Part shown: in pieces, positions 1-28,017 of the stretch
Position numbering within the stretch: position 1 is the first letter of the stretch
How the letters are laid out: each line of letters begins with the position of its first letter
Assembly (NCBI GenBank): GCA_021650915.1
Contig: CP091279.1
Location: forward strand, 3,630,001-3,662,000
Direction: 5' to 3'
Source: Candidatus Brocadia sp.
GTDB taxonomy: Bacteria > Planctomycetota > Brocadiia > Brocadiales > Brocadiaceae
Length of the DNA: 32,000 nt
Made by a program: the position numbers and the translations under genes
Notes under the pieces: model-generated
What the model was told of the DNA's origin: nothing
The model's database searches: none
The model's input: the letters and a program-made list of their open reading frames with translations, nothing else

Positions 1-638
1 TTATAGTAACTGGCTGAGGCAATCAGCTCCAGTCCTTCAGAACGACGCCAAAGGACGGATGCAGAAGCGCCGTCGGCAAAGAGTGCATTTGAAATGATCA
101 AACTCAAATCGTCCGCCATCTGATAGGTGGCGCTGCAGATCTCTACGGAAACACCCACGATCACCCCGTTATCAGAACTTTTTGCCATATCCTCGCAGAT
201 TTGCAGGTTGGGAATTCCTCCCCCACACCCGCTGCCAACCAGGTCATGGGCGCGTGTCTTGTCCGACATGCGGAGTTTTTCTATGAGATAGGTAGAGATG
301 CCGGGACAAATATATCCGGTGCAGGTATTCACCACCAATCCCGATACATCGTCCGGGGTCAATCCAACGGGGGTCAATGCCTTCAGGATTGCCTGAGATG
401 AAAGGTCTACCGCCCAGCGTGTAAAGCGTGCGATACGGTTATCCGGATGCTCGTGAATAAGACCCTTGAGGTCGTCCAGCGCAAGGTGTCTGTGCACTAC
501 GCTCGGATGGGCAAAAATCTTCCGCAGTATTGCCAGATTCTTTTTGCTCAGTTTGTCTGCATAGGCTCTTACCAGAAATTCCTCAGCATGGGCCTGGCTT
601 ACCCTGTAGGGGGGGGTAGTAACTGCTACCGATCCCAT
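1..638 (-). CDS. Type III polyketide synthase (chalcone-synthase-like), N-terminal 212 codons; 3' end lies beyond the window start
   Basis: Absent from the ORF track because there is no stop in the window. My translation of the minus strand from ATG 638-636 gives MGSVAVTTPPYRVSQAHAEEFL...VVNTCTGYICPGISTYLIEKL...LVGSGCGGGIPNLQ...VEICSATYQ...LFADGASA. These are the catalytic-Cys GxGCxGG loop and the ExCSxT(Y/F)Q and F(A/G)DGA motifs typical of type III PKS. Confidence 0.8.
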   Translation of the reverse strand, partial: MGSVAVTTPPYRVSQAHAEEFLVRAYADKLSKKNLAILRKIFAHPSVVHRHLALDDLKGLIHEHPDNRIARFTRWAVDLSSQAILKALTPVGLTPDDVSGLVVNTCTGYICPGISTYLIEKLRMSDKTRAHDLVGSGCGGGIPNLQICEDMAKSSDNGVIVGVSVEICSATYQMADDLSLIISNALFADGASASVLWRRSEGLELIASASYY

Positions 639-688
639 ACAAATCTTTTGTGAAGGAGGTATGGGTAACCTTTTATCATTATTCGCCA

Positions 689-2116
689 TCATACGTCCAT
701 TCCAAAAAGCCTGAGTCCGCGCCGGATAAAACGAGTGTATCGCCAGAGGGGGGACCTGACTCCTGCCCTGTATCCCAGGCGATTCAAGGCCGGAAGAAAC
801 GAAAGGCCAAGGGTATTGGAGTCAATATAATTTAGGTGTGTACCCAGCGCCTTTCGCAGGGTATTGATTAACCAATCCAGATCCAGGCCGGGAGAAAGGT
901 AAAACACGGGTTCCAGCATTTCCCGGGAAGGAAGCGCCAAAACACCTTCTTTACGAGCCCGCTGCTCAAGTTCAGTGCCAGGATAGATGCGTATTCCTAT
1001 ATTGAAAAATACCACGTCTTTCGGACGTATGAATTGCTCTGCAAAATGCAACGTTTCCTGAACGGTATCTTGTGTTTCGCATGGCCCTCCCAGCATGAAG
1101 ATCCAGAGGCAAGGTATATTGTGATGTTGAACGACCCGGGCTGCATGGTAGACGTGTTCTACGGTAAAACCTTTTTGGAGACCGTCCAGGACAACACCAG
1201 ATGCGCTTTCAACCGTAATACCCATACCAACGAAACCAGCCTCCTCCATTGCGGTAAGGAGGTCATCGTCTATGAAAAGCGGGTTTAATTCCAGGCTCTG
1301 GAGACGAACATCAGGTCTGGCTCTGGCAAGGCCATTACAGATGGCCAATGCATGATCATAGGGGGAATTAAATACATTGTCAACAAATTCAATGTCCCTG
1401 AATCCCTTCCCGGCAAGACGCTCAATCGTATCGACGACCACGGCGGGATTACAGAAACGATAGTCGTATCCTTCAATCTTCCGGTAGGTGCAGTAGACGC
1501 ATTTGAAGTGGCATCCGAGTTTTGTTTGAATGGGCACCGTCGACAACCTGGACAGGTAGGCATGCGTATCAATCCATCGGTGGAAACCGGGAACCAGACA
1601 GCCATCGGAAAAACGGGTTACATAACCGGTATTTTTCCTGAAGATACCATCATCCAACCATGCAACACCAGGAATTTGGTTCGGGAACTCACCTTGGGAA
1701 AGCGAAGCTGCCAATTGAGGAAAAACAACTTCCCCGTCTCCCAGGATTGCCCAGTCTGCCCCCGTATAACGAAGCAATTCTTCAGGCATGATGGCAACTG
1801 CAGCGCCGCCAAGAACAAGGGCAGATCGCGTCTTGCTGCGGATGGTTTTCGCCAGTGGCTTCAAATCCCGAAAGAAAGCCACGGGATTTTGCATATCATT
1901 ATTGTCGATGTTTCGTACAGAAAGACCGACAATGTCAGGATTGAATTTGACAAGTTCAGACTCCAGGGACGATACCGGGTCTTTCACAAACATCAAATCC
2001 AATACCCTGACCGCGTGACCTTCCCGTCTGGTGGCTTCAGCCACAAGGCATGCACCGATCGGTATAACGGGCACGGGTCCGCAGTATCGATTGGTAACGA
2101 CAATGAGGATATTCAC
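689..2116 (-). CDS. B12-binding-domain radical SAM enzyme (class B rSAM)
   Basis: 475-aa ORF. The N-terminal Rossmann-like B12-binding region is MNILIVVTNRYCGPVPVIPIGACLVAE...VGLSVRN. The CxxxCxxC radical SAM cluster motif is in KLGCHFKCVYCTY. It lies 50 nt upstream of the type III PKS on the same strand. Confidence 0.9.
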   Translation of the reverse strand: MNILIVVTNRYCGPVPVIPIGACLVAEATRREGHAVRVLDLMFVKDPVSSLESELVKFNPDIVGLSVRNIDNNDMQNPVAFFRDLKPLAKTIRSKTRSALVLGGAAVAIMPEELLRYTGADWAILGDGEVVFPQLAASLSQGEFPNQIPGVAWLDDGIFRKNTGYVTRFSDGCLVPGFHRWIDTHAYLSRLSTVPIQTKLGCHFKCVYCTYRKIEGYDYRFCNPAVVVDTIERLAGKGFRDIEFVDNVFNSPYDHALAICNGLARARPDVRLQSLELNPLFIDDDLLTAMEEAGFVGMGITVESASGVVLDGLQKGFTVEHVYHAARVVQHHNIPCLWIFMLGGPCETQDTVQETLHFAEQFIRPKDVVFFNIGIRIYPGTELEQRARKEGVLALPSREMLEPVFYLSPGLDLDWLINTLRKALGTHLNYIDSNTLGLSFLPALNRLGYRAGVRSPLWRYTRFIRRGLRLFGMDV

Positions 2117-2194
2117 ACAGGTACAATCCCTGGTTACCCTACAACGATTATTCCTCTCATTCCCAAAGAGTAAGTCTCATTGCACGCGGTAACG

Positions 2195-2809
2195 TCATTG
2201 CTTCTTTTGCAGTCTCAGCCCAATCTCAGCAAGCCGGCGACCAAGGGCACGGCAAATGAGCGCCTCCTGTGGGTCGATTTCCCGCTTGTTGTCTAATCCT
2301 GCAATATGTCCTGGCCCGTAAGGAGAACCGCCGCCCTGCGTAGAAAAAAGTTCTTTAACCGAATAAGGAACGCCGACCAGAATCATCCCAAGGTGCAGCA
2401 AAGGGCCCATTAAGGTAAGGATTGTCGTTTCTTGCCCTCCGTGAAGGCTTGCGGTGGAGACAAAAATACTTGCCGGCTTACTTTCTAATTCTCCTGTAAA
2501 CCACAGGGAGGTAAGTTGGTCAATCTGATTTTTCAGTTGAGCAGACACATTTCCAAACCTTGTTGGTGTCCCGAAGGCAATCGCACTGGCCGCTTTGAAG
2601 TCATCCAGGGTAACCAGGGGAACGTCTTTCTGCATTTCTCTGCCTGCCTTCATATCTTCACGGGATTCGATAACAGACGAAGGAATCAATTCCGGCACTC
2701 TGCGAATCAGGGGTGTTGCCCCTTTGACTTCCTGAACGCCTTCTGCCACGAGTTTTGCCATTTTGTATACGTTGCCATATGTGCTGTAGTAAACAATGAG
2801 CACTTGCAT
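2195..2809 (-). CDS. wrbA: NAD(P)H:quinone oxidoreductase, WrbA-type flavodoxin-like protein
   Basis: 204-aa ORF. It aligns along its length with remembered E. coli WrbA (VLIVYYSTYGN..., GTPTRFGN, GGQETT, GGSPYG). SD AAAGGAG lies upstream of the ATG. Confidence 0.9.
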   Translation of the reverse strand: MQVLIVYYSTYGNVYKMAKLVAEGVQEVKGATPLIRRVPELIPSSVIESREDMKAGREMQKDVPLVTLDDFKAASAIAFGTPTRFGNVSAQLKNQIDQLTSLWFTGELESKPASIFVSTASLHGGQETTILTLMGPLLHLGMILVGVPYSVKELFSTQGGGSPYGPGHIAGLDNKREIDPQEALICRALGRRLAEIGLRLQKKQ

Positions 2810-2911
2810 TGGGTTTTCTCCTTTGCTTTGCCAAATTTTTTAAGCTGAACGAGTTGGAAAGAATACTATCCGAAGCGCGGAATAATATGAGTCAATCCTG
2901 ACAGGATGGTC

Positions 2912-3226
2912 TTATTGAAGAAAACCAGCAGGCAAATGGTTGCAGGCAAGCCAGGAGCGCATATATTGTCTCATATCCAACGCGTCCTTGTCTCGCTGTG
3001 TACCGTTATTACGGTGCGTGTCATGGAAAGATCTCCTGATAAAGTGCTTAATCCTCGCTGCTTTTGCAGCCGTTGCCAGAATTTTACCATGCCGTGTTTC
3101 TCTGGTGAGCCCGCGTTGTTTAACCGTTCTGAGATGAGCGATCCGGAGAACTCCCTGAAGTAGCTTATTTTCTGAAGTATGATCGCTAAAAACTTGTTTT
3201 GCTACGAGATCCCTTTTATTTACCAT
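2912..3226 (-). CDS. Small basic hypothetical protein (104 aa from internal ATG; ORF-track version starts at 3262)
   Basis: A strong SD (ACAGGAGGAAACATT-ATG) precedes the ATG at 3226 (MVNKRDLVAKQ...). It sits about 75 nt downstream of the leader terminator. No family recognised. Confidence 0.55.
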   Translation of the reverse strand: MVNKRDLVAKQVFSDHTSENKLLQGVLRIAHLRTVKQRGLTRETRHGKILATAAKAARIKHFIRRSFHDTHRNNGTQRDKDALDMRQYMRSWLACNHLPAGFLQ

Positions 3227-3300
3227 AATGTTTCCTCCTGTCTCCTCTTTATTATCTTTCATTGATCACAAGCCATGGTTCTGTTCACCTGGCTATAAAA

Positions 3301-3353
3301 TAAAAAAGCCTTACTGCAAAGATATTTTGTGAAACATCTTCGGCAGTAAGGCT
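3301..3353 (-). terminator. Intrinsic terminator / expression platform of leader RNA copy A
   Basis: The minus strand reads AGCCTTACTGC-(25-nt loop with inner AAGAT/ATCTT pairing)-GCAGTAAGGCT followed by a T-run. The stem sequence is identical to the terminator at 28138-28191. Confidence 0.65.
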
Positions 3354-3361
3354 ATCTTTTT

Positions 3362-3458
3362 CGCGGGGGGGAGAGGCGCGTTGCCACGCGCCTTTACCTC
3401 ATATCCGTCAAAAGACCCTTTCCTTTGCGTCCCCTGATTGCCCAGGGTTTGCCTTTGT
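3362..3458 (-). promoter_or_regulatory. GEMM-I (c-di-GMP-I)-like riboswitch aptamer candidate, copy A
   Basis: The minus strand reads AAAGGCAAA-CCCTGG-GCAA-TCAGGG-GACGCAAAGGAAAGGGTCTT. This matches the 5' half of the Vc2 c-di-GMP-I aptamer as I remember it (GGCAAA, 6-bp stem, GNRA loop, 6-bp stem, GACGCAAAG). The 3' half is not obviously canonical. A paralogue lies at 28018-28100. Confidence 0.5.
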
Positions 3459-3684
3459 CGTAATGTTCTTCTCTTATGCTTGTTTGTAAAATGTCATTGC
3501 TTAAAACAGAAATGAAGATACTCTATCATAGATAACTAGGTATCTCAAGTAAAAATAAAATTATTATTGCATTAGCACATTTTAGTATGGTCAAATAAAG
3601 GACCGAAAATTTCAGGGTGCTGCCGGTATTGTTATTACGTATCGATGGTGCACTCATTCCAGCGAAAACAAAGGAGGGTTTGAT

Positions 3685-4947
3685 CTGAACGCATACCTTG
3701 TTCTTGTCCTCTGTATTTATATCCTGAAAGAGACCTTTGAATATGCCGTACAATATTTCAATCTCAGGTATATGAAGAAGGTTGGTATTTTCGTACCGCC
3801 TGAATTTGAAGGAATTGTAGACGAGGCTCTTTTAAAAAAGACCGGGGACTATGAGACAGAAAAGACGCACTTCAGCTTTTTCTCCTCGATACTCAGTAAT
3901 GTCGCTACGATCATATTCATTTTTTGTGGTTTGCTGAATATTTATAATTCCTGGATAGCATCCCTGAACCTGCCATTTATCATTTCCGGATGGCTCTTCT
4001 TTCTCATTCTATCTTATGGAGGTGAATTCCTGTCCGTGCCTTTCCGTTGGTACAACACTTTTAAGATAGAGAACAAATACGGATTTACCACTACGACTTT
4101 GCGGTTATGGGCGTCTGACTTCATAAAAACACTCTTTATTTCAACGGTTATGATATCTCTGATGGCATGTGCGGGCTTCTGGCTTATTCAGTGGAGTCCG
4201 CTGTACTGGTGGTTCTGGATATGGGGTTTTCTCTTTCTTTTCAGCATTTGTATGATGTACCTGTCTCCCTATGTTATAGAGCCGTTATTTAATAAATTCA
4301 CCCCGATTGAGAACGACGCGTTGAAAGAAAGGATTCGTGAATTAACGGATAAGGCCGGTATTCGCGCAAGCCGGATCCTCAGAATCGATGCATCAAAGAG
4401 GAGCAAACATACCAACGCTTATTTTACCGGTATTGGAAAAACAAAGAGGATCGTCCTCTACGATACCTTACTTGAGACCATGAACCATAGTGAGATCATC
4501 GCTGTGCTGGCACATGAGATAGGCCATTGGAAGAAAAAGCATATGCTGAAAACGATCATTGCGTTTGAGGTTGTTTCGTTTATTGCCCTGTATTGCTCGT
4601 TTAAAATACTGCAAAGCGATGCCCTTCTGACGCTCTTTCACATTCGCACCAATACCCTCTTTGCAAAAATTATTATCCTTGCATTCCTTGCTGATATCCT
4701 CTCATTGTCCTTTATGCCATGCGTAAGCTATCTTATGAGGAGACATGAAATGCAGGCAGACAGGGCATCATATGAACTTACGAGGGATCCGGAAAGCATG
4801 ATAAGCGCCCTTGTAAAGCTATCGAAAGAGAATCTCACCAATCTGTATCCGCATCCGCTCTATGTCACCTTGTATTATTCACACCCTCCCATCCTTGGAA
4901 GGCTTCGGTATTTCAGGAAATTGTTAGAAAAAGATATTGGGCGATAA
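3685..4947 (+). CDS. M48 family zinc metalloprotease, Ste24/CAAX-prenyl-protease-like. The first ATG is at 3772; a probable non-canonical CTG start is at 3685.
   Basis: HEIGHWKKKH (HExxH) motif and multiple TM helices. The in-frame sequence upstream of 3772 encodes NAYLVLVLCIYILKETFEYAVQYFNLRY, the first TM helix and the LNLR motif seen in Ste24 homologues. It contains no ATG/GTG/TTG. SD AAGGAGG (3671-3677) lies 7 nt before CTG 3685. Confidence 0.85.
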   Translation: MNAYLVLVLCIYILKETFEYAVQYFNLRYMKKVGIFVPPEFEGIVDEALLKKTGDYETEKTHFSFFSSILSNVATIIFIFCGLLNIYNSWIASLNLPFIISGWLFFLILSYGGEFLSVPFRWYNTFKIENKYGFTTTTLRLWASDFIKTLFISTVMISLMACAGFWLIQWSPLYWWFWIWGFLFLFSICMMYLSPYVIEPLFNKFTPIENDALKERIRELTDKAGIRASRILRIDASKRSKHTNAYFTGIGKTKRIVLYDTLLETMNHSEIIAVLAHEIGHWKKKHMLKTIIAFEVVSFIALYCSFKILQSDALLTLFHIRTNTLFAKIIILAFLADILSLSFMPCVSYLMRRHEMQADRASYELTRDPESMISALVKLSKENLTNLYPHPLYVTLYYSHPPILGRLRYFRKLLEKDIGR

Positions 4948-5068
4948 GGATGTCTTTTTTATGTTATGAAGGCTGGATACAATAACACCGTGTAAAAGCC
5001 TAATTCCTTTGCTATATTTGGCGCCTCTTCTTGCCGGTGTGGTGAAGGAAAAATCACAGGAGTTGTGA

Positions 5069-5611
5069 TTATGGTTCGTTTGTGCGGTGATCTGTTCTGA
5101 ACCACATTTCATAGAGGGGGAGAGAGATGTATGCCCCAAAACTCAGAATGAGAAGGATGTTAGAAATTGTAAAGGTAAGCACAAAATGAGGGGATGAATA
5201 TCTGATAAGCCATGGGGCCCCAAGATTCAACAGAATTCCCATAAATGAAGCTCCGTAGATGGTAACTTTCAACCCTTCACGGGTATGTGTCATAGCCATA
5301 ATGCGGGAGAGGATAAATATGACAATGGGCATGGAAAAGATATGGGTGTGTGTCACATCCAGGAGTTCCCGGTAGGATTTTGGGAAAAACAGCCCCTCTT
5401 CGAGCTTTGATCTGTTCTCCTCGGCTGACAACGGGGTGTTGATATCTTCCTCTTCGTTGCCACAATAGTAGCGTATGGTTTTTTGTGAAGAAAACCCCGT
5501 CCGCTCATAATAATTGAGAAAGCCAACGCCCAGGGCAACAGTCATAATGGATAGGAAAAAGGTAAAAAAGATCTTATTGCTTATGGGAAGCGACCACATA
5601 CCACTTGACAT
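5069..5611 (-). CDS. Integral membrane protein (about 4 TM, THTHxFSMP motif), function unknown
   Basis: ORF 5069..5653. The start at 5611 is preferred because AAAGGAG lies 6 nt upstream. It overlaps the apbE-fusion stop (5574) by 38 nt, which suggests translational coupling. Hydrophobic helices include IFFTFFLSIMTVALGVGFL and IFSMPIVIFILSRIMAM. Confidence 0.7.
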   Translation of the reverse strand: MSSGMWSLPISNKIFFTFFLSIMTVALGVGFLNYYERTGFSSQKTIRYYCGNEEEDINTPLSAEENRSKLEEGLFFPKSYRELLDVTHTHIFSMPIVIFILSRIMAMTHTREGLKVTIYGASFMGILLNLGAPWLIRYSSPHFVLTFTISNILLILSFGAYISLPLYEMWFRTDHRTNEP

Positions 5612-7361
5612 TGTCTTCTCCTTTGGCAGGGGATTTTTTAAACTTATCCGCAAAACCCTTTGTCATGGCAATTACGGTTTTCCCGTCATTGTCTTCATAG
5701 ATAATCATGGCATGAGCGTTGGGGATGGTCTTTGCCAGTTCCAGGCCTTTTTCGTGACCTAAAACAAAGAGGCTGGTTGAGAGTGCATCAACTTCCGTCC
5801 CAGTAGGCGCCACAACCGTTGTTGCCATGGTACCGGTTACCGGCCTTCCTGTAAGCGGGTTTATAATATGGGAATAGCGTTTTCCCTTCATCTCAAAGAA
5901 CCGCTCGTAATCTCCTGATGTAGCCGTAGCCTCATCCTTGAGTTCCAGATAACCCAGGATCTCATCCTTATTCCGTGGGTGTTGTATGCCAATTTTCCAT
6001 GCAGTTTTTCCAGGGGGTGTGCCCCACACATAAATATTTCCGCCAAGATTAATACATGCACTGCTCATATTGCATTTTTTTATGATTTCCAATGCCTTGT
6101 CGACCGCGTATCCCTTTCCAATAGCGCCCAAATCAATTTGCGTCAGCGCATTTTTAAAAAATACCGTGCCAGGCTTTTTTGGATCAGCATTTCTCTTTAC
6201 GACAATATTGTTATAAGAGACGGCCGGCAAGACCTTCTCTATCTCTTTGTCGGAGGGGATATGTCCTTTTTCGTGAAAAAACCCCCATAGAGCGACGATC
6301 GGCGAGACGGTGACGTCAAAAGCGCCGCCGCTGAGCTCGCTATAATGCTGTGATCGTTCAATCACATCAAGAAGTTCCCCCTGGCATGGTACGGGCGACC
6401 GCGCAGCATTCTTGTTGAGTTGAGAGAGTTCGCTCGTCTGCTTATAGTTACTCATAATACGGTCCATGCGTTCGATTTCATCCAGGGCTTCTTCAACGGC
6501 ATGGCCGGCAGCTTGCTCGTCCCCGGAATATACCGACACTTCAGCAAAGGTACCCATGATCATACGGGTTTGCTTCACCATTTTTATTTCAGGAGAGACG
6601 TCTTTGTGGTTTTCCGTTTCTCTTTTCTTGTGTTCTGTGTTTTTTTGAGCGTTCGCTGTCCCGTCGTTCGTGGTCTGAGATGTATTTGCTACGTGCACCG
6701 GTTCTGTTTTCAGAGGCAGGGCGACAGGTTCCGTGGTACGGGTGGTTGTATGCGCCGTTCTTTTCCCGCTGAGATAGTATGCATCAATAACAGCGAGCAC
6801 CTTTCTCACGCCTGCGCACATGTATTGAACAGACATGGTAGCGCCGGTGACATTAATGATGTCTTTGTTTATGCGAAGGGGATTTTTCAGAGACTTGCCC
6901 ATGAATTGATAGAGAAAGCGTTTTCTGGTAATTTCTGCGCCGCGGCTCTCACGGTAAACAAGGACTGCAACGTCCTTGATCTTTCCCGCCGGGGTTACCC
7001 CAACAATAAAGGTAAAGGGATGAAACTTGCCGATCTCCTCGGTAATAATTGCGTATGCCTGAATAGCGCCCTTCTTTTTCCCAAGATACACCTTAAATCT
7101 ATCCTCATAGAGTCTTCTGCTCAGAAGTTTTTCAAGGTTGTTTTTTTCTTCAGGGGACATAAAAATCTCGTCGGTTGTAATTTCATCACATCCGTGAAAT
7201 ACAAGGTCGAGCGCTTGTTCTTCTGTAAGGTAGGTCTGGATTTGAAAATTCTCTGCCGGTTCTGTCTCTGTTTTGGCCTGTATGGATTTCGAAATGAATG
7301 GAGTCAGCGCTCCTGCGAAGGAGAAAAGGGAAAAGAGAAAAATTATTCGTTTTGAAGCCAT
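5574..7361 (-). CDS. apbE: Fusion protein: signal peptide + FMN-binding domain (RnfG/NqrC/NosR-type) + ApbE FAD:protein FMN transferase
   Basis: 595 aa. The N-terminal signal is MASKRIIFLFSLFSFAGALT. The FMN_bind-like domain carries the flavinylation-type motif INVTGATMSV. A T/P/E-rich linker follows. The C-terminal ApbE body includes GAFDVTVSP, IDLGAIGKGYAVD, INLGGN and TSGDYERF. Confidence 0.88.
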   Translation of the reverse strand: MASKRIIFLFSLFSFAGALTPFISKSIQAKTETEPAENFQIQTYLTEEQALDLVFHGCDEITTDEIFMSPEEKNNLEKLLSRRLYEDRFKVYLGKKKGAIQAYAIITEEIGKFHPFTFIVGVTPAGKIKDVAVLVYRESRGAEITRKRFLYQFMGKSLKNPLRINKDIINVTGATMSVQYMCAGVRKVLAVIDAYYLSGKRTAHTTTRTTEPVALPLKTEPVHVANTSQTTNDGTANAQKNTEHKKRETENHKDVSPEIKMVKQTRMIMGTFAEVSVYSGDEQAAGHAVEEALDEIERMDRIMSNYKQTSELSQLNKNAARSPVPCQGELLDVIERSQHYSELSGGAFDVTVSPIVALWGFFHEKGHIPSDKEIEKVLPAVSYNNIVVKRNADPKKPGTVFFKNALTQIDLGAIGKGYAVDKALEIIKKCNMSSACINLGGNIYVWGTPPGKTAWKIGIQHPRNKDEILGYLELKDEATATSGDYERFFEMKGKRYSHIINPLTGRPVTGTMATTVVAPTGTEVDALSTSLFVLGHEKGLELAKTIPNAHAMIIYEDNDGKTVIAMTKGFADKFKKSPAKGEDNVKWYVVASHKQ

Positions 7362-7454
7362 AGAAATGTCAATGGATACGTGCGTTTATTGCCCGACAAT
7401 TACCTTTTGATATTTTTAGGAAGTTTCTGCCCTGAACTGCATGAGGTGTTTTGA

Positions 7455-7486
7455 TGAAAAAAAGGAAACCGTCTCAGCGTTTTCCT
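7455..7486 (-). terminator. Intrinsic terminator after the lipoprotein gene
   Basis: The minus strand reads AGGAAAAC-GCTGAGAC-GGTTTCCT followed by TTTTTTTC, 15 nt past the stop at 7501. Confidence 0.55.
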
Positions 7487-7500
7487 CTCTTGCGGAAGAA

Positions 7501-7980
7501 TCATGGCACATTGAGGATCTTTTCTATCCTCTGTAAATAGTCCCGCTCAATGGTGCCATCTGATACCGTACGATTCCATCGATACGCCCGGCTCCCGCCC
7601 GGCGCCTTTTCTTCAAGCTGGGCTTGCATAGAAACATAGGTTTTGGCTTGTTCTCCCGTTACCTGAATCGTCAGGCGATATCGTTCCTGCCATTCTCCTC
7701 CCGTAATTAATCCGGTAGATTTTGTCGTAGACCAGCCTTTTATCCACTGAGTTCTTAACAACCCTTTTTCCATATCTTTTATTTCAACCTGAATCCCCGT
7801 CATTGCCTGATCAACGGCGTTCCATACGGTATTTACATCAGCATCAAAATACCGGGAAACAGCCGTCATATTTCTTAAACCGAGGCGACCTGGAGTACAC
7901 CCGGTAAAAAAGACAGCAAAGACGGCAATGGATAACAATATGCCGCTAGAAGTAATGCTTTGTAATCGTTTTGGTTTCAT
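7501..7980 (-). CDS. Putative lipoprotein (possibly BamC/NlpB-like; weak)
   Basis: 159 aa. Signal peptide plus lipobox: LLSIAVFAVFFTG-C. The remainder is soluble. The family assignment is only an impression. Confidence 0.7.
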   Translation of the reverse strand: MKPKRLQSITSSGILLSIAVFAVFFTGCTPGRLGLRNMTAVSRYFDADVNTVWNAVDQAMTGIQVEIKDMEKGLLRTQWIKGWSTTKSTGLITGGEWQERYRLTIQVTGEQAKTYVSMQAQLEEKAPGGSRAYRWNRTVSDGTIERDYLQRIEKILNVP

Positions 7981-8076
7981 AGGAAACGAAAATAATAACA
8001 GAAATATGATTCTTTTACAAACACTTTGTTTAAGTTTTCTTTCGGCAGCTCACTGCAGTAAATACCTTTAATATGT

Positions 8077-8098
8077 GCAGTAATTGTACTGCTTTTTT
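8077..8098 (+). terminator. Orphan hairpin + T-run in the divergent intergenic region upstream of pssA
   Basis: GCAGTA-ATTG-TACTGC followed by TTTTTT. No annotated plus-strand gene lies upstream. Confidence 0.35.
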
Positions 8099-8439
8099 AT
8101 CAAAGAGACTGATATACCGATTTCATTATTTCTTAACCTATTTATAACTATCTTTGAATAAAATAGTTATATTAATACGATAAAAAAAAGATTTCTTCTG
8201 TCTCAGGCACACATTTTGTTGTACTGTCATAAGATCGTGTTTTTGGAATGTTTACATCCCATATCTTTTTACGCATCTGCGAAAGTTGTGCATAAGGCGT
8301 TGGTTTTTAAATTTTGTCTTCGTCGATCTTCTCACGGTAGAGCAACGAGGCTCGTCGCTCTATCGTCGTAACTTTGAAATTCCTGCACATATATTTTTTG
8401 TTATAGCAGACTATATACACTTTTGTCCGGAGGTTTATC

Positions 8440-9171
8440 TTGAAAATAAGGGAAATGTTGCCCACGGTAGTTACCCTGGGAAATATGATATGCGGTTTTT
8501 CTTCGATTTTGTGCGCCTCAAATCATCAGTTTGAGATTGCAGCCTGGTTAATTGTTGCGGCTATGGCATTGGACGCCTTTGATGGAAGGCTGGCACGCAT
8601 GATGAAGACTTCAAGCAAGTTAGGCTCCCAATTGGATTCAATGGCGGATTTGACAACCTTTGGTATTGCTCCCGCCATTCTTATGATCAAGACGTGCACG
8701 AATTTTCCCAATCTCTTTTTGTGGGGGGTTGGTTTGTTTTTCATGATATGCGCAGCCTTTCGGCTGGCAAGGTTTAACACACAAAAAGACGAAGAAACGA
8801 CTATGGCAAGGCATTTTTTTACGGGATTGCCCACCACGCTTTCCGGAGGAACCATTGCGCAACTGGTCATTCTGAATCACTTTATTCAAATAAAATTTGG
8901 TATTGACATCGTTGCTGTACTTCTCCCGTTCATTACCTTTGCGCTTGGGTTATTTATGGTAAGCAAAGTCCCGTTCTTCAATATTACCGGAAAAATCGGC
9001 CTTAAACAAGGAATTTGGTTTATGGTACTGGAATTTTCCGCGGCCATCGTATTCTTTGTGCTTACCCCTGAGTTAGCGCTATCCACGGCGCTCAGTTGTT
9101 ATTTAATATCATGTGCAATGTATGGAGTTGTAAAAGGCAGGCATCTTAAAAAAGGATACTCAGTGACATAG
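8440..9171 (+). CDS. pssA: CDP-diacylglycerol--serine O-phosphatidyltransferase (CDP-alcohol phosphatidyltransferase family)
   Basis: 243 aa. The DG(x)2AR(x)8G(x)3D(x)3D motif is in DAFDGRLARMMKTSSKLGSQLDSMADL. Multiple TM helices. TTG start 5 nt after GGAGG; an alternative ATG is at 8455. Confidence 0.88.
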   Translation: MKIREMLPTVVTLGNMICGFSSILCASNHQFEIAAWLIVAAMALDAFDGRLARMMKTSSKLGSQLDSMADLTTFGIAPAILMIKTCTNFPNLFLWGVGLFFMICAAFRLARFNTQKDEETTMARHFFTGLPTTLSGGTIAQLVILNHFIQIKFGIDIVAVLLPFITFALGLFMVSKVPFFNITGKIGLKQGIWFMVLEFSAAIVFFVLTPELALSTALSCYLISCAMYGVVKGRHLKKGYSVT

Positions 9172-9213
9172 CGTTTCTGATGAGAAAAAGTAAGCTTCAC
9201 TATTATTTTTATA

Positions 9214-11237: not shown

Positions 11238-11939
11238 ATGAAAGATGACGGAAGGAAGCTGTCAAGGGAGGTATTGGAGTCTTATCGAATCCGGGCGATC
11301 ACGCTCAGGGATAAGATGCATTATTCCGTTAAAGAAATAGGCGAGATATTTGGCATTAAGTATGAAAGTGTCTCAAGGTGGTTCTCTCAATACCGTCGTG
11401 GTGGTATAGAGGCGCTTAAGGAACGCAAAGCAAAGGGCAAGGCGCGAATTGTAAATGCGGATGATTTAAGATGGTTGCAAAGTGTTTTGCAGAATGTCGC
11501 GACAAAATATGGTTTTTCGACTCCGCTGTGGACCGGAACATATGTTAGAATTCTTTTCCGGCGAGAAGGAAAAGTGAATTTGGATCGCAGCACAATATGG
11601 CGATATCTGGTTCGGTTGGGTTTGAGTTTTCAAAAGCCGGAAAAACGTTATTCACAGCAAGACATGGATTTGGTAAAGACATGGATTAGCAAGGAGTGGC
11701 CTGAAATTCAGAAGTGGGCTCAGAAAAACCGGGCTATTATCTATTTTGAGGATGAGTCGGGCGTTTCCCTTGCGCCTGTTATTGGAAAAACATGGGCTCC
11801 GATAGGAGAAACCCCCGTTGTGCGTGTGACCGGGAAACGGGCGGCGTTTTGGCCATGTCGGCGATTTCGCCATCTGGCAGGATGTGTTTCCGTCTGGAGA
11901 AACGAAAAGTTAACGCCCAGGTTCTTATGGAATTTCTGA
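11238..11939 (+). CDS. IS630-family transposase, N-terminal part (HTH domains and first catalytic D)
   Basis: Winged-helix/HTH region (YSVKEIGEIFGIKYESVSRWFSQYRRGG) and IYFEDESG. After ...PVVRVTGKR the homology continues in the -1 frame. Confidence 0.8.
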   Translation: MKDDGRKLSREVLESYRIRAITLRDKMHYSVKEIGEIFGIKYESVSRWFSQYRRGGIEALKERKAKGKARIVNADDLRWLQSVLQNVATKYGFSTPLWTGTYVRILFRREGKVNLDRSTIWRYLVRLGLSFQKPEKRYSQQDMDLVKTWISKEWPEIQKWAQKNRAIIYFEDESGVSLAPVIGKTWAPIGETPVVRVTGKRAAFWPCRRFRHLAGCVSVWRNEKLTPRFLWNF

Positions 11940-12247
11940 ATCAAATTAGCGTGCAACATCCGCGGCGTAAGGTGGCGGTGATCATGGACCAAGCGCCTTG
12001 CCATGTTGCCAAAAGAATTAAAGCATTGAATGAGGGGTCATCGAAGCTACGCGTATTCCATCTGCCGCCGTATTCACCGGATCTGAATCCGGATGAAAAA
12101 GTTTGGCGGCATATGAAGCATGTCACGCTAAAGAATCACCAGGCACAGAACAAAAAACAACTTGGACGTTTAGTCATTGGAGCGCTTAGAAAAATACAGA
12201 AGAACCCTGAATTGACCAAGAAATTCTTTGAGAATTATTTAACATAA
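11792..12247 (+). CDS. IS630-family transposase, C-terminal part (second D and E of the DDE triad), -1 frame relative to 11238..11939
   Basis: GGVLAMSAISPSG..., VIMDQAPCH and LPPYSPDLNPDEKVW. The frame junction is near 11838-11842. Confidence 0.8.
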   Translation: MGSDRRNPRCACDRETGGVLAMSAISPSGRMCFRLEKRKVNAQVLMEFLNQISVQHPRRKVAVIMDQAPCHVAKRIKALNEGSSKLRVFHLPPYSPDLNPDEKVWRHMKHVTLKNHQAQNKKQLGRLVIGALRKIQKNPELTKKFFENYLT

Positions 12248-12275
12248 TCAATGCAACGAACTATATTTCAGAAAA

Positions 12276-12434
12276 TTACAAAAGGTTGTGATTAATAATT
12301 TTGCCATCTCCCGAAACATCTTCCATTCCTATAAATGTAACTGACTCCTCACAGCCAATTGGCTTGCGAGACGGCCTTATTTGGCACAAGCCCCCCAATT
12401 GACAATTATCCATTTTCAATTTTTCATTACTCAT
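12276..12434 (-). pseudogene. hsdS: Type I R-M specificity subunit (hsdS) N-terminal stub, about 52 aa
   Basis: MSNEKLKMDNCQLGGLCQIRPSRKPIGCEESVTFIGMEDVSGDGKIIN resembles the start of an HsdS target-recognition domain. SD GGAGGTGG lies upstream. It overlaps the yhcG end, stops after 52 codons, and the IS630 end is 13 nt away. Confidence 0.5.
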
Positions 12435-13042
12435 TACCACCTCCCGCTGTTCTGCCAAGCTCGGCTTCAATCTCCTCAATGCTCGGCAGGCCGGATTTCA
12501 GGTTTTCCGGCAATGAGCGGGTCGGTTCATATTCGGATATACCGATGGGTTTATGCATGTCTCGCAATGCATACTCGGCAAGAACCCTGTCTTTCGTTTG
12601 ACACAAAATAAGGCCAATAGTAGGTTGATCGGTCGGGTGTTTGAGCATGTCGTCAATTGCGGAACAGTGAAAGTTCATCTTCCCCGCGTATTCCGGCCTG
12701 AAGTCCCCTTTTTTCAGCCTGTTGTAATTGTGCCACAGCCTGTGGCATTATTGGCAATATGTTCGGATATTCACGATAAAAGCGAAGCATTCGCTTGATG
12801 TTCCGCTCTGAAAATCCTTTCTCTTCCGGTAACTCATTTCGTATATCTCTGGCAAGACGCGGAATAATCGTGGCTCCCCACCCTTCACGATCTTGCCTGT
12901 CCTGAATCATTCGCCCGATGTCCCTGTACATCAAAATCATCTCCGAGTTTGCGGAAAGCGTTGCTTTAACCTGCGCCTGGCGAATGCGGGTTTTAATATC
13001 GCTCAATAAGACGCCGTAGAATTCACGGCTGTTCATTTCCAT
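12427..13042 (-). pseudogene. YhcG/DUF1016 PD-(D/E)xK nuclease-family gene with an internal deletion/frameshift
   Basis: The N-terminal ORF 12653..13042 (ILMYRDIGRMI...WGATIIPRLARDI...GFSERNIKRMLRFYREYP) and the C-terminal ORF 12427..12678 are in different frames. My in-frame read upstream of the latter gives LKKGDFRPEYAGKMNFHCSAIDD...PTIGLILCQTKD...PIGISEY. Together they give about 210 aa against about 350 expected. Confidence 0.65.
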
Positions 13043-13247
13043 ACCAACCCCATTTTCTTCAGGTGCCCGTGTACCTTTTTCTCTAACGCATCCACTTCAG
13101 CAGTGATGGCAGGCAATGGGGCTTCATGGCGTTCTGCCAGTTCTTTGATGCGTCCCGTAAGCCGCTGGCTGATACGCTCCATTTCAGTTTTTATATCCCT
13201 TTCAAGCGCGGCCATCCATTTATCTTCTATTATAAGAATCTTTTTTT
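13033..13247 (-). pseudogene. hsdM: Displaced 3' end of hsdM (last about 71 codons), separated from the body by the IS66 insertion
   Basis: ILIIEDKWMAALERDIKTEMERISQRLTGRIKELAERHEAPLPAITAEVDALEKKVHGHLKKMGLVWK. It joins in frame to ...TEAEKK at 14967 once the IS and one TSD copy are removed. Confidence 0.8.
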
Positions 13248-14966
13248 GTAACTATTCAGCGTAATATCGCCCCCTATCGTTACGAGCTGGCAAAATCAGG
13301 CAATTTGCCGCGAAATACCATCCGTAATGCCTGACTTAAATTTACCCCTTGTTTTCGACAAGTCGAGAGATAACTACGGATGAGGCAGAAGATCTTCGCT
13401 CCGTCCAGAGAACGAAAACAGCCCGATATCTTCTGCTGAACCTTCGTCATCCTGATATCGTTTTCGGCCAGGTTATTCGTGAAGGGGACGTTTTTATTGT
13501 CCATAAATCTGAGCACATCACCCTCATACTCCCGTAATCGTTCCAGGAGATTCCGTGCTTTTGTCCTTTTTACCCGCCCTCTTTTCCCCTTGCGGTTCGT
13601 TTCATCAGGGGGCGGGCTTTCAGCTTCTGCGTTTTGTAATATCCCCCGGTACCTTTGCCGGTATTTCTCAGACTCGCCGTTTTCCAACAAACCCCCCGCA
13701 TCCTTTACCGCACGGTTTATCTCTTCGAGCAGGGCTTTCATCTCTTTCGCCCACGGTTGCTTCTTATCCTCTTCCCACACCCCCTCCAATTCCCTCAGGT
13801 GGTGTGCATTACAGAGCGCATGTGTACAGCGGGTGTAGGTGTAATACGCCTTCAAATGGTCGTGACAAAGAATCCCCCGAAACTGGGGCAGTATCCCGAT
13901 ACTATCCATCGCTTCCGTCCCACGTCTTTCGTGAGGGAAAAAGTGTGTCCACAAACTATTGGATGCACTATGCAGCCAATACCTGTCTCCGTTCTTGTTG
14001 ATGCTCGTTTCATCTGCCTGCAATACCTCTGATTTGACAAGTTCTTCCTTGGTTTTCCTCTCGAAGGCTTCCAGAGATTCGTAGGCATCCTTGTTAAAGT
14101 TGTAAAGAGAGCCTTCGCTCAGCGGTATCCCCATCTGCTCCTCAAAATACTCCTGGATCCTCTTATAGGGTATCAATTGATACTGTGACATATATACTGC
14201 GTGCGCTTTCAAATCCGGCCCATACTGCACTGCCTTTGTCACCCCTTCCGGAAATGACGCTACAAACCTACTTCCCTCCGCATCCTCAACTATCTCTGCC
14301 CGATACTCCGTTACCACCCTTGAAATCTTCATATCAAACACCTGACGCGACTCATAACCGATCAACCTGTATTTGCCGCTCGGATACTTCCTCCGGTCTA
14401 CTTTTATTACTTCCACCTTATCAGGATTGGCTACCTTTTTCAGCGTTACTCCATCATGACCCTCTTGCCCACCTGCCTTCCTCTCTCCTTTCGCCCTGCT
14501 CTTTCTCGTGCGATTCGGATCGCTTGCGGGCGGCTTACTACTGTTGCGACTGTTCCGGTTCAGACGTCCTACCAGCAGCGTTATCACTAACACCAACAAC
14601 TCTATCATTGACCTTATGGCAGGTGACAGACCTTTTTCCTCTGAAAGCAGCTTTTCTACTTTCCGCAGCGTTGCATCTATATCTATATTCTCTATCGTCA
14701 ATGGATGGCACCGGTATTAATAGCCTGAAATCATCTCCTGCGGCTATTATACCACAGGCTTTTTCACCCATTTTTTTCACCCTCTACCGCCCTACAAAAC
14801 TCTGTAATTCTCTGGCCGAACATACCCCACACCTCTCTTTGCAAAAACCTCCGATGGGCTACAGTGGCATCCTCCACAGCCATTTATTCTACCAACCAAT
14901 TCTACGGCCCCCTTTTCTCATGTTGACTGTCAACTAAATTCTAAAATATTTTCGCTGAATAGTTAC
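13248..14966 (-). mobile_element. IS66-family insertion sequence, single-ORF type (1719 bp)
   Basis: Perfect 14-bp terminal inverted repeats: GTAACTATTCAGCG at 13248-13261 and its reverse complement at 14953-14966. An 8-bp direct target duplication CTTTTTTT lies at 13240-13247 and 14967-14974. Confidence 0.9.
13280..14701 (-). CDS. IS66-family transposase
   Basis: 473 aa. It has an N-terminal coiled coil and a basic region (NSRNSSKPPSDP-like). The DDE core includes LQADETS, ILCHDHLKAYY, CNAHHLREL and FTNNLAENDIRM, all typical of IS66 TnpC-type transposases. Confidence 0.9.
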   Translation of the reverse strand: MTIENIDIDATLRKVEKLLSEEKGLSPAIRSMIELLVLVITLLVGRLNRNSRNSSKPPASDPNRTRKSRAKGERKAGGQEGHDGVTLKKVANPDKVEVIKVDRRKYPSGKYRLIGYESRQVFDMKISRVVTEYRAEIVEDAEGSRFVASFPEGVTKAVQYGPDLKAHAVYMSQYQLIPYKRIQEYFEEQMGIPLSEGSLYNFNKDAYESLEAFERKTKEELVKSEVLQADETSINKNGDRYWLHSASNSLWTHFFPHERRGTEAMDSIGILPQFRGILCHDHLKAYYTYTRCTHALCNAHHLRELEGVWEEDKKQPWAKEMKALLEEINRAVKDAGGLLENGESEKYRQRYRGILQNAEAESPPPDETNRKGKRGRVKRTKARNLLERLREYEGDVLRFMDNKNVPFTNNLAENDIRMTKVQQKISGCFRSLDGAKIFCLIRSYLSTCRKQGVNLSQALRMVFRGKLPDFASS

Positions 14967-18599: not shown

Positions 18600-19562
18600 T
18601 TGTCTGAAAAAACCGTGGCAGAACTTGAGAATTTAATCCTGGAGATTGAACACCAAATTGAGGATTTGCAAAGCGCTTCCTCAAATGACCACCTTGACCG
18701 GGGCACAGAGATACAGCATTTGAGGGAAAGGCGGGAACGCCTTCAGGTGAGACTATGCACGAAATTAACTCCTTACGATATTGTCAAGCTCGCCCGGCAT
18801 CCCTTGCGGCCCCTTTCCGCAGATTATGTTAATATGATGATTGATGATTTCGTCGAACTGCACGGCGATAAACGTTTCGGAGACGACAAGGCGATGATCT
18901 GCGGGTTGGGAAAAATCGGGAAGGAAAGGATTTTATTTATCGGACAGCAGAAAGGCAAGAGCACGAAGGAACGGATTGCATGTAATTTTGGGATGCCGAA
19001 TCCTGAAGGTTACAGAAAGGCGTTACAAAAGATGAAGCTTGCAGAAAAATTTCATCTGCCCGTCGTCACCCTTATCGACACACCGGGCGCGAATCCCGAT
19101 ATTGGCGCAGAGGAACGGGGACAGGCCCATGCAATTGCAGAAAATATTTATGAGATGTGCCGTTTGAAAACCCCGATTATCAATATCGTTATCGGCGAAG
19201 GTGGGAGTGGCGGCGCTTTAGGGATTGGGATTGGCGACAAATTTGCCATTTTGGAATATGCTTATTACTCTGTCATCTCACCGGAAGGCTGCGCAGCAAT
19301 CTTGTGGAAAAATGCTGAAAATGCCCCGGCGTCGGCTATGGCATTGCAGCTTACCGCAAAGGACCTCTTGCGCTTTGGCGTGGTTGACGAAGTTATCCCT
19401 GAGCCACTCGGCGCAGCGCACAAAAACCCTAAGGCTATGGCCGACATTCTTAAGACGCAAATAACGAAATATTTGGCAGAATTGAAGGGCGTTCCTATGA
19501 ACGATCTTATAGCAAATCGGTATGCGAGATACCGAAAGGTTGGTAAATATCGGGAAGAATAA
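18600..19562 (+). CDS. accA: Acetyl-CoA carboxylase carboxyltransferase subunit alpha
   Basis: 320 aa with RHPLRPLSADYV, FIGQQKG, TLIDTPGA, ERGQAHAIA, GEGGSGGALG and SVISPEGCA. TTG start after AAGGAG. Confidence 0.92.
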   Translation: MSEKTVAELENLILEIEHQIEDLQSASSNDHLDRGTEIQHLRERRERLQVRLCTKLTPYDIVKLARHPLRPLSADYVNMMIDDFVELHGDKRFGDDKAMICGLGKIGKERILFIGQQKGKSTKERIACNFGMPNPEGYRKALQKMKLAEKFHLPVVTLIDTPGANPDIGAEERGQAHAIAENIYEMCRLKTPIINIVIGEGGSGGALGIGIGDKFAILEYAYYSVISPEGCAAILWKNAENAPASAMALQLTAKDLLRFGVVDEVIPEPLGAAHKNPKAMADILKTQITKYLAELKGVPMNDLIANRYARYRKVGKYREE

Positions 19563-20739: not shown

Positions 20740-21777
20740 TTACAGGAAGGCCTTCTCTAATTCTCCAAGAATGAGTTGCTGCACTTCGGCAATAGTGCCT
20801 TGTATTTCACAGCCGGCGGCATACTTATGGCCGCCGCCGCCAAACTTTTTTGCAACGTCGTTTACATTAAACCCATTTCTGCTTCTGAAACTTGCCTTAA
20901 TCCAGTTGGGTTTTGTCATCTCACGGAGCAGCACCCCAACGGTCACCCCCTCGATTGACACGGGAATGTCGGCAAATTCCTGCGTGTCGATAGCGTTGAT
21001 CTTCGCCTTCTCCAGCATCTCTTTTGTCAGCCAGATGACGGCAATCCGGTTCCCGGCGTGGAGGCCGACCGTGTTGAGCACCCGGGCGCGCAACTGGATC
21101 AGGGGAAAACTATTCGTGTTGTAAACATTTTTCGAAATTTCTTCATGCCGTGCACCGCGTTCAATGAGAAATGCAGCAGCCCTGAGCGCCGCAGGGGTCG
21201 TATTGCTGTGGGTAAACCGGCCCGTATCCGTTACGATTGCTACATATAAGGCCGTTGCCATATCCGGGGTAATATCAATGTCCATCTCCCTCAAAAGAGT
21301 CAGAACAATTTCCCCCGTGGCGCACATATCCTCCGCAACCCAATTGACCGCGCCAAAATATTCATTCGAGATGTGATGGTCTACATTGATAATTTTCGCA
21401 TCTTCGGGAATAATTTCCTGTATCATGCCGAGACGCTCAAGAGTGGGGCTATCGAGGGCAAAAACAACCTCTGCGCGATCTTTTGGGGAATCTGGGTAGA
21501 TATAAACCCCTTCCGGCGGAATGATGAATTGATACATCTGGGGAGTTGGGGAATCGTTGGCGATACAGACCGTTTTTCCCATGCTCCTGAGGGCATGATA
21601 GAGAGCCACTTCCGATCCGATACCGTCTCCGTCTGCCCGGACGTGGGTAGTAATGAGGAAGCGCTGATAGCGTTTTACCATGCTACAGATTTCTTCCCCA
21701 TGCATCTTGACGATCGTGTCTTCCACTGGTTTCCCTCCCCTGATCAGAACGCAACATCGTGCGCTGAACACAGTCAT
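20740..21777 (-). CDS. nrnA: DHH/DHHA1 phosphoesterase (NrnA-like oligoribonuclease / pAp phosphatase)
   Basis: HVRADGDGIGS, NVDHHISN and GGGGHKYAAG (DHHA1). The track ORF extends to 21942, but homologues are about 320-345 aa. ATG 21777 follows GGAAGA; 21705 is an alternative start. Confidence 0.82.
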   Translation of the reverse strand: MTVFSARCCVLIRGGKPVEDTIVKMHGEEICSMVKRYQRFLITTHVRADGDGIGSEVALYHALRSMGKTVCIANDSPTPQMYQFIIPPEGVYIYPDSPKDRAEVVFALDSPTLERLGMIQEIIPEDAKIINVDHHISNEYFGAVNWVAEDMCATGEIVLTLLREMDIDITPDMATALYVAIVTDTGRFTHSNTTPAALRAAAFLIERGARHEEISKNVYNTNSFPLIQLRARVLNTVGLHAGNRIAVIWLTKEMLEKAKINAIDTQEFADIPVSIEGVTVGVLLREMTKPNWIKASFRSRNGFNVNDVAKKFGGGGHKYAAGCEIQGTIAEVQQLILGELEKAFL

Positions 21778-27972: not shown

Positions 27973-28017
27973 GATCGAGCGTTCTTTTTTATTAAGAACC
28001 TACGATGGATAGCTTGA

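Follow-up and report, generated by a model that had tools for sequence, protein, structure and literature searches.

We analyzed a 32,000-nucleotide (nt) stretch of the genome of Candidatus Brocadia sp. (contig CP091279.1, positions 3,630,001 to 3,662,000 of the forward strand), which we refer to as the window. An initial annotation, made from the sequence alone, had described a leader-controlled run of four genes at its left edge, with a type III polyketide synthase (PKS) gene next to one for a cobalamin-type radical S-adenosylmethionine (SAM) enzyme. From upstream to downstream, the locus contains the following features.

3520-3553, minus strand: candidate sigma-70-like promoter (TTTACT-17-TATGAT and TTGAGA-17-TAGAGT)
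3339-3463, minus strand: riboswitch aptamer for cyclic diguanylate (c-di-GMP), type c-di-GMP-I (Rfam RF01051), with a 49-nt insertion hairpin in P1b
3296-3357, minus strand: intrinsic terminator and expression platform, with 5' arm AGCCUUACUGCCGAAGAUGUUU and 3' arm AUAUCUUUGCAGUAAGGCU, followed by UUUUUUAUUUU
2912-3262, minus strand: small open reading frame (ORF) of 116 amino acids; an alternative ATG at 3226, with an AGGAGG Shine-Dalgarno sequence, gives 104 amino acids
2195-2809, minus strand: WrbA gene, 204 amino acids
689-2116, minus strand: cobalamin radical SAM enzyme gene, 475 amino acids, GTG start
1-638, minus strand: type III PKS gene, with the N-terminal 212 amino acids in the window, or 229 if translation starts at 692

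The ORF list bears out the four co-directional genes, with gaps of 102 nt (2810-2911), 78 nt (2117-2194), and 50 nt (639-688). On identical public contigs, some gene callers used 692 as the PKS start, which overlaps the radical SAM stop codon by 4 nt (ATGA). WrbA is preceded by an AGGAG ribosome-binding site. The initial annotation had seen no convincing terminator between the genes, and two analyses agree with it. A minus-strand pattern scan found no terminator-like site in the three gaps, and the intergenic stretches did not fold better than shuffled sequences (z = -1.40, -1.45, and +0.90). The minus-strand pattern matches that did occur (8, versus 4.0 ± 2.0 in shuffles) were weak stems of 5 to 6 bp within coding sequence.

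The cluster had also been expected to continue beyond the window start. This is true only trivially: the 3' end of the PKS gene alone lies outside. The complete protein, taken from 100%-identical public contigs, has 364 amino acids, of which 152 (456 nt, plus the stop codon) are encoded outside the window start. A 199-nt gap follows on those contigs, and then come a hypothetical gene, a deaminase gene, and a multihaem cytochrome gene. None of these is conserved with the upstream genes outside close Brocadia relatives, and the cluster effectively finishes at the PKS. The gene immediately downstream appears to be frameshifted in the source strain (L001 3928-4628, just outside the window start; L numbers denote the contigs and loci compared). 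Two ORFs there, of 185 and 49 amino acids, match a single 247-amino-acid protein of Brocadia WS118 (L009 12672-13415), and the gene has no Pfam match.

The riboswitch-like leader of the initial annotation proved to be a genuine c-di-GMP-I riboswitch and is of the second-messenger type. It matched the full RF01051 model (positions 1 to 87) with 58.1 bits, above the gathering score of 35 (E = 4.5e-9). The aptamer core is unchanged in five orthologous Brocadia leaders and in a second copy in the window, and the P1b inserted hairpin varies among the Brocadia leaders with compensatory G-C to A-U changes. As a soft test of ligand specificity, we aligned the copies with the Vibrio cholerae Vc2 riboswitch, in which we take G20, A47, and C92 to be the ligand contacts. 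The corresponding positions read G, A, and C in seven of seven copies. An A at Vc2 position 20 would point to cyclic GMP-AMP (cGAMP). Therefore, c-di-GMP fits these positions rather than cGAMP.

The terminator hairpin that follows has a predicted energy of -28.9 kcal/mol (z = -7.83 versus shuffles), and both of its arms are invariant in the leaders of L009, L010, L012, L031, and L032. Its 5' arm shares positions 3339-3353 with the 3' strand of the aptamer (P1b). Because the 5' arm starts inside the P1b 3' strand, aptamer and terminator should be mutually exclusive, so that ligand binding should favor read-through. This structural logic predicts that the leader is an ON switch for c-di-GMP. Farther upstream, the promoter hexamers are weak 9/12 matches to the consensus, and their count in the region is no higher than in shuffles. 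They offer a positional guess for the transcription start only.

Three other observations concern this upstream region. The Logan short-read contigs identical to the window (L001 to L007) all stop at 3325/3326, within the terminator loop, presumably at an assembly break caused by repetition of the riboswitch-terminator cassette. Contig L008, considered as a case with a different upstream region, was rejected as merely a shorter 100%-identical contig. A divergent M48 (HtpX/Ste24-like) protease gene, 3772-4947 on the plus strand, adjoins the riboswitch promoter region, and its position is kept in L009, L012, and L108.

The part of the PKS within the window matches Pfam families FAE1_CUT1_RppA (PF08392) and Chal_sti_synt_N (PF00195), and the full-length protein from the identical contigs adds Chal_sti_synt_C (PF02797). 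Its top solved relative is Mycobacterium tuberculosis Pks11 (E = 3.5e-37), and all 60 matches listed are type III PKSs. A catalytic triad of C156 (GSGCGGG), H287 (FHPGG), and N320 (FGNMSS) aligns with the Pks11 motifs, and all three residues are conserved to 98% or more across 120 homologues. The initial annotation had warned that the protein might turn out to be a FabH-type enzyme of primary metabolism. We rejected FabH on the basis of the Cys-His-Asn triad, the chalcone-synthase fold, and FabH model scores far under their cut-offs (TIGR00747, 83 bits against 292; NF006829, 81 bits against 249). The protein is a true type III PKS. Four further cysteines are near-invariant in its family (C124, C129, C186, and C345; the first three are encoded at about 135-323 of the window), and the motif NTCTGYxCPG contains two of the four. 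A gene for AccA, the acetyl-coenzyme A (CoA) carboxylase alpha subunit involved in malonyl-CoA supply, lies in the same window (18600-19562, plus strand).

The PKS might use malonyl-CoA only and make an aromatic compound of the tetrahydroxynaphthalene, phloroglucinol, or dihydroxyphenylacetate type. The radical SAM enzyme would then methylate it, WrbA would handle the naphthoquinone or benzoquinone that results, and the product would be a redox pigment or shuttle rather than a membrane lipid. Of the curated NCBIfam models, DpgA is the best for this PKS (175.6 bits), but the score is far under the cut-off of 425. Tetrahydroxynaphthalene synthase (1u0m) is among the top solved relatives, but Pks11, the first of them, is a long-chain alpha-pyrone synthase that uses a long-chain acyl substrate. 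Database labels, which are not based on experiment, point both ways: one source calls a 98%-identical protein 1,3,6,8-tetrahydroxynaphthalene synthase, whereas the Joint Genome Institute (JGI) labels several homologues alkylresorcinol/alkylpyrone synthase. Gene neighborhoods favor the malonyl-only idea to some extent. Among the 80 best loci from species-representative genomes, with neighbors considered within ±7 kb, no gene for an acyl-CoA ligase or acyl carrier protein (ACP) is linked to the radical SAM and PKS genes. Overall, we consider a malonyl-only aromatic product quite unlikely.

The 475-amino-acid protein is a class B (cobalamin-binding) radical SAM enzyme resembling TsrM and BzaD. 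It has a Pfam B12-binding domain (PF02310, 61.8 bits) and a Radical_SAM domain (PF04055, 56.3 bits), and 163 homologues all keep its CxxxCxxC motif (C202/C206/C209) without variation. Copies in Candidatus Brocadia pituitae and other Brocadia metagenome-assembled genomes (MAGs) are 84 to 86% identical. The closest solved structure by profile is, by far, TsrM (6wte, E = 5.8e-54). An invariant R68 in an R-N-x-D motif aligns with TsrM R69, and the position of TsrM E273 is occupied by Val. We take E273 to be the Glu that caps the unique iron of the TsrM cluster and makes TsrM nonradical; if so, the Val suggests that the window enzyme may use genuine radical chemistry. Both BzaD and TsrM C-methylate aromatic rings.

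The best curated model for this protein is TIGR04072, named rSAM_ladder_B12, which it matches over its full length with 320.4 bits, under the equivalog cut-off of 360. BzaD (171 bits, cut-off 450) and TsrM (117 bits, cut-off 500) come next. Ten diverse relatives (33 to 60% identical) score 276 to 336 on TIGR04072. The enzyme thus belongs to a broad cloud of homologues that score alike, and with its own score short of the cut-off, we rejected the idea that it is a specific paralogue of the ladderane radical SAM enzyme.

The initial annotation had made its proposal depend on conservation of the PKS/radical SAM adjacency in related genomes. The adjacency holds in at least three phyla. In 72 of the 78 loci with room for it, the PKS gene is directly downstream of the radical SAM gene on the same strand; six loci lack it, and the other two of the 80 leave no space for it. 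Projected gaps between the two genes have a median of about 0 nt. The anammox (anaerobic ammonium-oxidizing) genera with the pair are Brocadia, Jettenia, Kuenenia, Scalindua, Loosdrechtia, Wunengus, and Subterrananammoxibius (58 to 86% identity), and it is also found in Nitrospirota/Thermodesulfovibrionales and Desulfobulbia (53 to 61% identity). Clustering of all neighboring ORFs in the 80 loci revealed no other universally conserved neighbor. Judged by this synteny, the conserved unit is only the two-gene module of radical SAM enzyme plus PKS, which is found in anaerobes. Database names for both proteins are all generic. We found no literature that links type III PKSs with B12 radical SAM enzymes or with anammox bacteria, and none on a c-di-GMP-I riboswitch upstream of a PKS-containing operon.

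A role for the module in the synthesis of ladderanes, or of other anammox core lipids, also has to be weighed, with the radical SAM enzyme as a paralogue of the ladderane one. How ladderanes are made is still unsolved, and one proposal has the ladderane moiety made separately (PMC10139942). Each anammox genus sampled has the module, and TIGR04072 is the best model for its radical SAM enzyme over the full length, but with a score under the cut-off and within the range of the ten relatives. Nitrospirota, Thermodesulfovibrionales, and Desulfobulbia, none of them known as ladderane producers, have orthologous pairs (55 to 61% identity). The module is also not linked to type II fatty acid synthase (FASII) or amxACP genes: in the 80 loci, the ±7 kb around it contains no gene for FabF, FabZ, ACP, or a phytoene-desaturase-like protein. 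This makes a ladderane role most improbable. Kuenenia stuttgartiensis was reported to have no PKS-like genes (Rattray et al. 2009; PMC2649909), so this PKS was never considered for ladderanes. However, MAGs of the Kuenenia lineage do carry a type III PKS, as do all other anammox genera sampled. These data show that the statement that Kuenenia-type genomes lack PKS-like genes needs correcting.

Upstream of the module, the 204-amino-acid protein is assigned by its scores to WrbA, NAD(P)H:quinone oxidoreductase type IV (TIGR01755, 191.7 bits, cut-off 132.5; NF002999, 205.5 bits, cut-off 141; it also matches Pfam FMN_red). WrbA was found in 18 loci. It lies upstream of the radical SAM gene in freshwater Brocadiaceae; the exception is a Desulfobulbaceae locus (L083) with a 42%-identical WrbA downstream of the PKS. 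Therefore, WrbA looks like a Brocadiaceae add-on to the radical SAM-PKS unit. Other partners are also lineage specific. A 123-amino-acid lipoprotein cupredoxin with a CuA-like motif (CSHFCGxGHxxM) lies between WrbA and the radical SAM gene in most of 14 loci (for example, L009 9611-9982). It has been deleted from the window, where only 78 nt (2117-2194) are left. Cupredoxins occur in 18 loci overall, and more distant ones adjoin the module in Scalindua and Nitrospirota. A UbiE/COQ5-like methyltransferase gene accompanies three loci, of the Desulfobulbia type, directly upstream of the radical SAM gene in L083 and nearby in L071 and L088, and DUF2147 stands beside the module in some Nitrospirota (six loci). 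A pirin gene replaces the small ORF in L012 and is upstream of WrbA in L011 and L015. The accessory genes of relatives (pirin, UbiE/COQ5 type, and WrbA) are circumstantial pointers to phenol or quinone chemistry.

Three of the four gene identities in the initial annotation, type III PKS, cobalamin radical SAM enzyme, and WrbA, stood. However, the "small basic protein" did not. The small ORF scored 24.5 bits against Pfam NmrA, under the cut-off of 27, and covered only profile positions 58 to 128 of 298. It therefore falls outside full-length NmrA-like proteins, which have a Rossmann fold of about 290 amino acids and exceed 27 bits. A profile of five small-ORF orthologues matched residues 48 to 134 of a 289-amino-acid NmrA-like protein (5f5n, E = 6e-5). 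The ORF has no GxxGxxG motif, and the B. pituitae orthologue holds a degenerate Rossmann motif, LVTGAPDTREG. Identity to orthologues is 45 to 55%, versus 82 to 89% for the neighboring genes, and the ratio of nonsynonymous to synonymous substitution rates (dN/dS) is 0.3 to 0.7, versus 0.03 to 0.08 for WrbA. These comparisons characterize the small ORF as a truncated, fast-evolving NmrA-like remnant under relaxed selection. With this truncation and dN/dS, a functional basic protein or regulator was unsupported. We also looked for an intact full-length NmrA-like gene at this position in relatives and rejected the idea, with L011, L012, and L015 carrying pirin. Because a strong Shine-Dalgarno sequence and the open frame are kept in five genomes, the ORF could be a translated leader ORF.

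The riboswitch stands ahead of the cluster in the window, in L009, L010, L012, L031, and L032, and in metagenome contig L108. The link between riboswitch and cluster is confined to one Brocadia subclade. The riboswitch is absent from the Brocadiaceae loci L011, L014, L015, L022 to L025, L028 to L030, L033, and L034, which have WrbA, radical SAM, and PKS genes. It is also absent at Brocadia locus L018, the one scanned among three loci (L018, L026, and L040) that share a different upstream region. A Jettenia riboswitch (L020, 101-190) proved to be unlinked to the module; it is ahead of an unrelated gene that is followed by opposite-strand genes.

The same riboswitch design recurs elsewhere. A second c-di-GMP-I riboswitch in the window (28012-28152, plus strand, 54.8 bits) shares the terminator arms of the cluster leader, with the cassette extending to 28188. 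About 610 nt after this cassette, at 28801 on the plus strand, begins a giant secreted right-handed beta-helix repeat protein (28801-32000, at least 1,066 amino acids). The protein has a Pro/Thr/Ser linker, its end is LamG-like, and its gene runs past the window end. A pattern that combines the 3' strand of the aptamer with the terminator (window 3303-3353 and 28138-28188) matched at least 110 metagenome contigs (L089 to L198). The first genes behind it mostly encode secreted adhesin-like proteins (Big_5, BACON, LamG/CBM9, beta-helix, and SBBP propeller), and others belong to contractile injection systems (Pvc16_N and sheath). This implies that Brocadia-like bacteria have a large regulon under c-di-GMP riboswitches. 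Because the cassette is mostly ahead of surface proteins, the WrbA-radical SAM-PKS operon would be a metabolic outlier in a surface-protein regulon. The initial annotation had called second-messenger control of such a cluster unusual. The riboswitch is there, but its unusualness is reduced: this design is so common here that finding it upstream of any one operon is less remarkable. A DHH/DHHA1 phosphoesterase (NrnA/GdpP-like) that could degrade pGpG or cyclic dinucleotides is encoded at 20740-21942 on the minus strand.

These distributions raise the possibility that the riboswitch governs the leader ORF, or at most WrbA, and that the radical SAM-PKS pair is expressed from its own promoter, so that its position here is incidental. 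In most lineages, the pair occurs without WrbA or riboswitch, and this includes other Brocadia (L018, L026, and L040, with the riboswitch scan covering L018 only). The WrbA-radical SAM junction appears to be evolutionarily fluid, because relatives carry the extra cupredoxin there. Contig L108 adds to this. Relative to window positions 1-9186, it is about 100% identical from about 2100 upward (WrbA, small ORF, riboswitch, and M48 protease), versus 76 to 93% across the radical SAM and PKS genes, where it is closer to L010 (92%). This mosaic, with its breakpoint near 2100, is either an assembly chimera or a recombinational replacement of the module; the drop in identity suggests that the module behaves as a separable unit. 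However, neither a promoter-like nor a terminator-like site lies in the 78-nt gap between WrbA and the radical SAM gene, and the gap shows no significant structure. Furthermore, the arrangement riboswitch-X-WrbA-(cupredoxin)-radical SAM-PKS, all co-directional, is found in six Brocadia lineages. We therefore regard a riboswitch that stops short of the module as unlikely.

We instead propose a c-di-GMP-inducible operon of Candidatus Brocadia in which the radical SAM-PKS pair makes a phenolic or pyrone compound with a radical modification, and we give this reading an even chance of being right. Transcription would start about 60 nt upstream of the c-di-GMP-I aptamer. In the absence of ligand, the aptamer 3' strand (AGCCUUACUGCC) would pair with its downstream complement, and the terminator would form ahead of the first ORF. 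With c-di-GMP bound, the aptamer 3' strand would be kept in P1b, antitermination would occur at 3296-3357, and polymerase would read through. The resulting transcript would carry the decaying NmrA-like leader ORF, WrbA, and then the tightly coupled radical SAM and PKS genes. The PKS would join an acyl-CoA starter and malonyl-CoA into a phenolic or pyrone polyketide of the alkylresorcinol or alkylpyrone type, or into a malonyl-only aromatic. The B12 radical SAM enzyme would then C-methylate this polyketide, or alkylate or otherwise modify it by a radical route, and in Brocadiaceae WrbA would hold the resulting quinone/hydroquinone reduced. In this order of events, the module would be ancient and would have been recruited, in one Brocadia lineage, into a c-di-GMP regulon otherwise driving adhesins and surface proteins. 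The initial annotation had suggested an alkylresorcinol-, alkylpyrone-, or quinone-like product with a radical modification. By analogy with known operons, this is plausible, and the support is circumstantial.

Several points weigh against the proposed operon and its product. Many relatives have WrbA-(cupredoxin)-radical SAM-PKS, or the bare radical SAM-PKS pair, without a riboswitch. Because the module so often lacks one, c-di-GMP control is not required, and internal promoters are possible. Co-transcription across the 102- and 78-nt gaps is something we infer, and the extended contig shows no canonical terminator behind the PKS, which leaves the 3' end of the operon undefined. Three orthologous leaders scored best with the variant class c-di-GMP-I-GGC (RF03167). 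The papers found on this class give its name only. Furthermore, WrbA, pirin, and NmrA-like proteins occur as stress proteins of a generic kind and may simply share a promoter with the module. The radical SAM enzyme could act on the starter unit, the alkyl chain, or the ring, and it could catalyze a reaction other than methylation. Finally, the PKS is only about 30% identical to any characterized PKS, and with DpgA as its best, distant model, its product class cannot be read from the sequence.

Anammox bacteria account for much of the nitrogen lost globally and are put to use in treating wastewater. Whether the anammox wastewater process works is decided by granule formation, which is linked to c-di-GMP. 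The locus thus offers a conserved, unstudied PKS/radical SAM module that is in all anammox genera sampled, is wired to c-di-GMP in Brocadia, and, as a two-gene unit that can be cloned, is a lead to a new lipid or redox metabolite of these uncultured anaerobes. The pair would add cobalamin radical SAM tailoring to type III PKS chemistry, as an anaerobic alternative to alkylresorcinol operons based on O2 and SAM methyltransferases. We can take this further, as a tentative and somewhat unlikely extension of the proposed operon. The pair might be an unrecognized O2-independent route to C-alkylated phenolic or pyrone lipids of anammox bacteria, Thermodesulfovibrionales, and Desulfobulbia. In Brocadia, c-di-GMP might switch it on together with adhesins, remodeling envelope lipids during granule or biofilm formation.

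Elsewhere in the window are an ApbE flavin transferase fused to an N-terminal FMN_bind domain (5574-7361, minus strand, 595 amino acids) and a patch of mobile-element and restriction-modification genes with strongly negative GC skew (11238-17186). The patch contains a fragment of a helix-turn-helix/DDE_3 (IS630-like) transposase, a transposase of the IS66 family (13280-14701), and the HsdM methylase of a type I restriction-modification system (14934-17186).

The leader and the enzymes can each be set beside known systems. Like the Vc2 riboswitch of V. cholerae (RF01051), the leader passes the family threshold, has a terminator expression platform, and has the canonical ligand-contact nucleotides under the numbering we assume. 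Unlike Vc2, it has a lineage-variable 49-nt insertion in P1b and is part of a multiplied riboswitch-terminator cassette. In TsrM and BzaD, as in the radical SAM enzyme of the window, a B12-binding domain at the N terminus precedes the radical SAM domain, but the window enzyme scores far under their equivalog cut-offs and has Val at the TsrM E273 position. With TIGR04072 proteins ("lipid biosynthesis B12-binding/radical SAM protein"; for example, Kuste2803), which are the B12 radical SAM enzymes of the putative ladderane gene clusters and are also found in anammox bacteria, it shares full-length homology. However, its context is type III PKS and WrbA rather than FASII and amxACP, and homologues from unrelated contexts score the same.

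At the level of the operon, srsABC of Streptomyces griseus and bpsA-bpsB of Bacillus subtilis pair a methyltransferase, and in some cases a flavoprotein, with their type III PKS and make phenolic lipids or alkylpyrone methyl ethers, which are associated with the envelope. The window cluster is likewise a compact operon with a type III PKS and one or two tailoring enzymes. However, the tailoring families differ, and SrsC needs O2. To our knowledge, neither srsABC nor bpsA-bpsB is under second-messenger riboswitch control. The closest known analogues are hidABC of picocyanobacteria and the methyltransferase-flavin adenine dinucleotide (FAD) oxidoreductase-type III PKS operons of aerobic Planctomycetota, which have the PKS last and make C- or O-methylated alkylresorcinols, the hierridins among them (PMC10896814). 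The window cluster is also short and ends with its PKS, and ahead of the PKS come a flavoprotein oxidoreductase and a putative methylating enzyme. Its host too belongs to the Planctomycetota, in which the G. maris methyltransferase of such an operon C-methylates the resorcinol ring (PMC10896814). Orthology of the PKS to HidC is not demonstrated. The candidate methylase in the window is a cobalamin radical SAM enzyme, whereas that of hidABC is a class I SAM methyltransferase. The flavoprotein in the window is the flavin mononucleotide (FMN)-dependent WrbA, found with the module as a Brocadiaceae trait, whereas that of hidABC is an FAD-dependent oxidoreductase. The tailoring families in the window do not depend on oxygen. 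Unlike those of the hidABC and planctomycetal operons, the hosts here are strict anaerobes, and one lineage has riboswitch control. With B12 radical SAM and FMN-WrbA partners, the window cluster is best described as an analogue, and not a member, of the hidABC/srsABC-type phenolic-lipid operons. It is a solid lead rather than a categorically new system, and what is new in it is that a cobalamin radical SAM enzyme stands beside the type III PKS and that, in one lineage, control lies with a c-di-GMP riboswitch.

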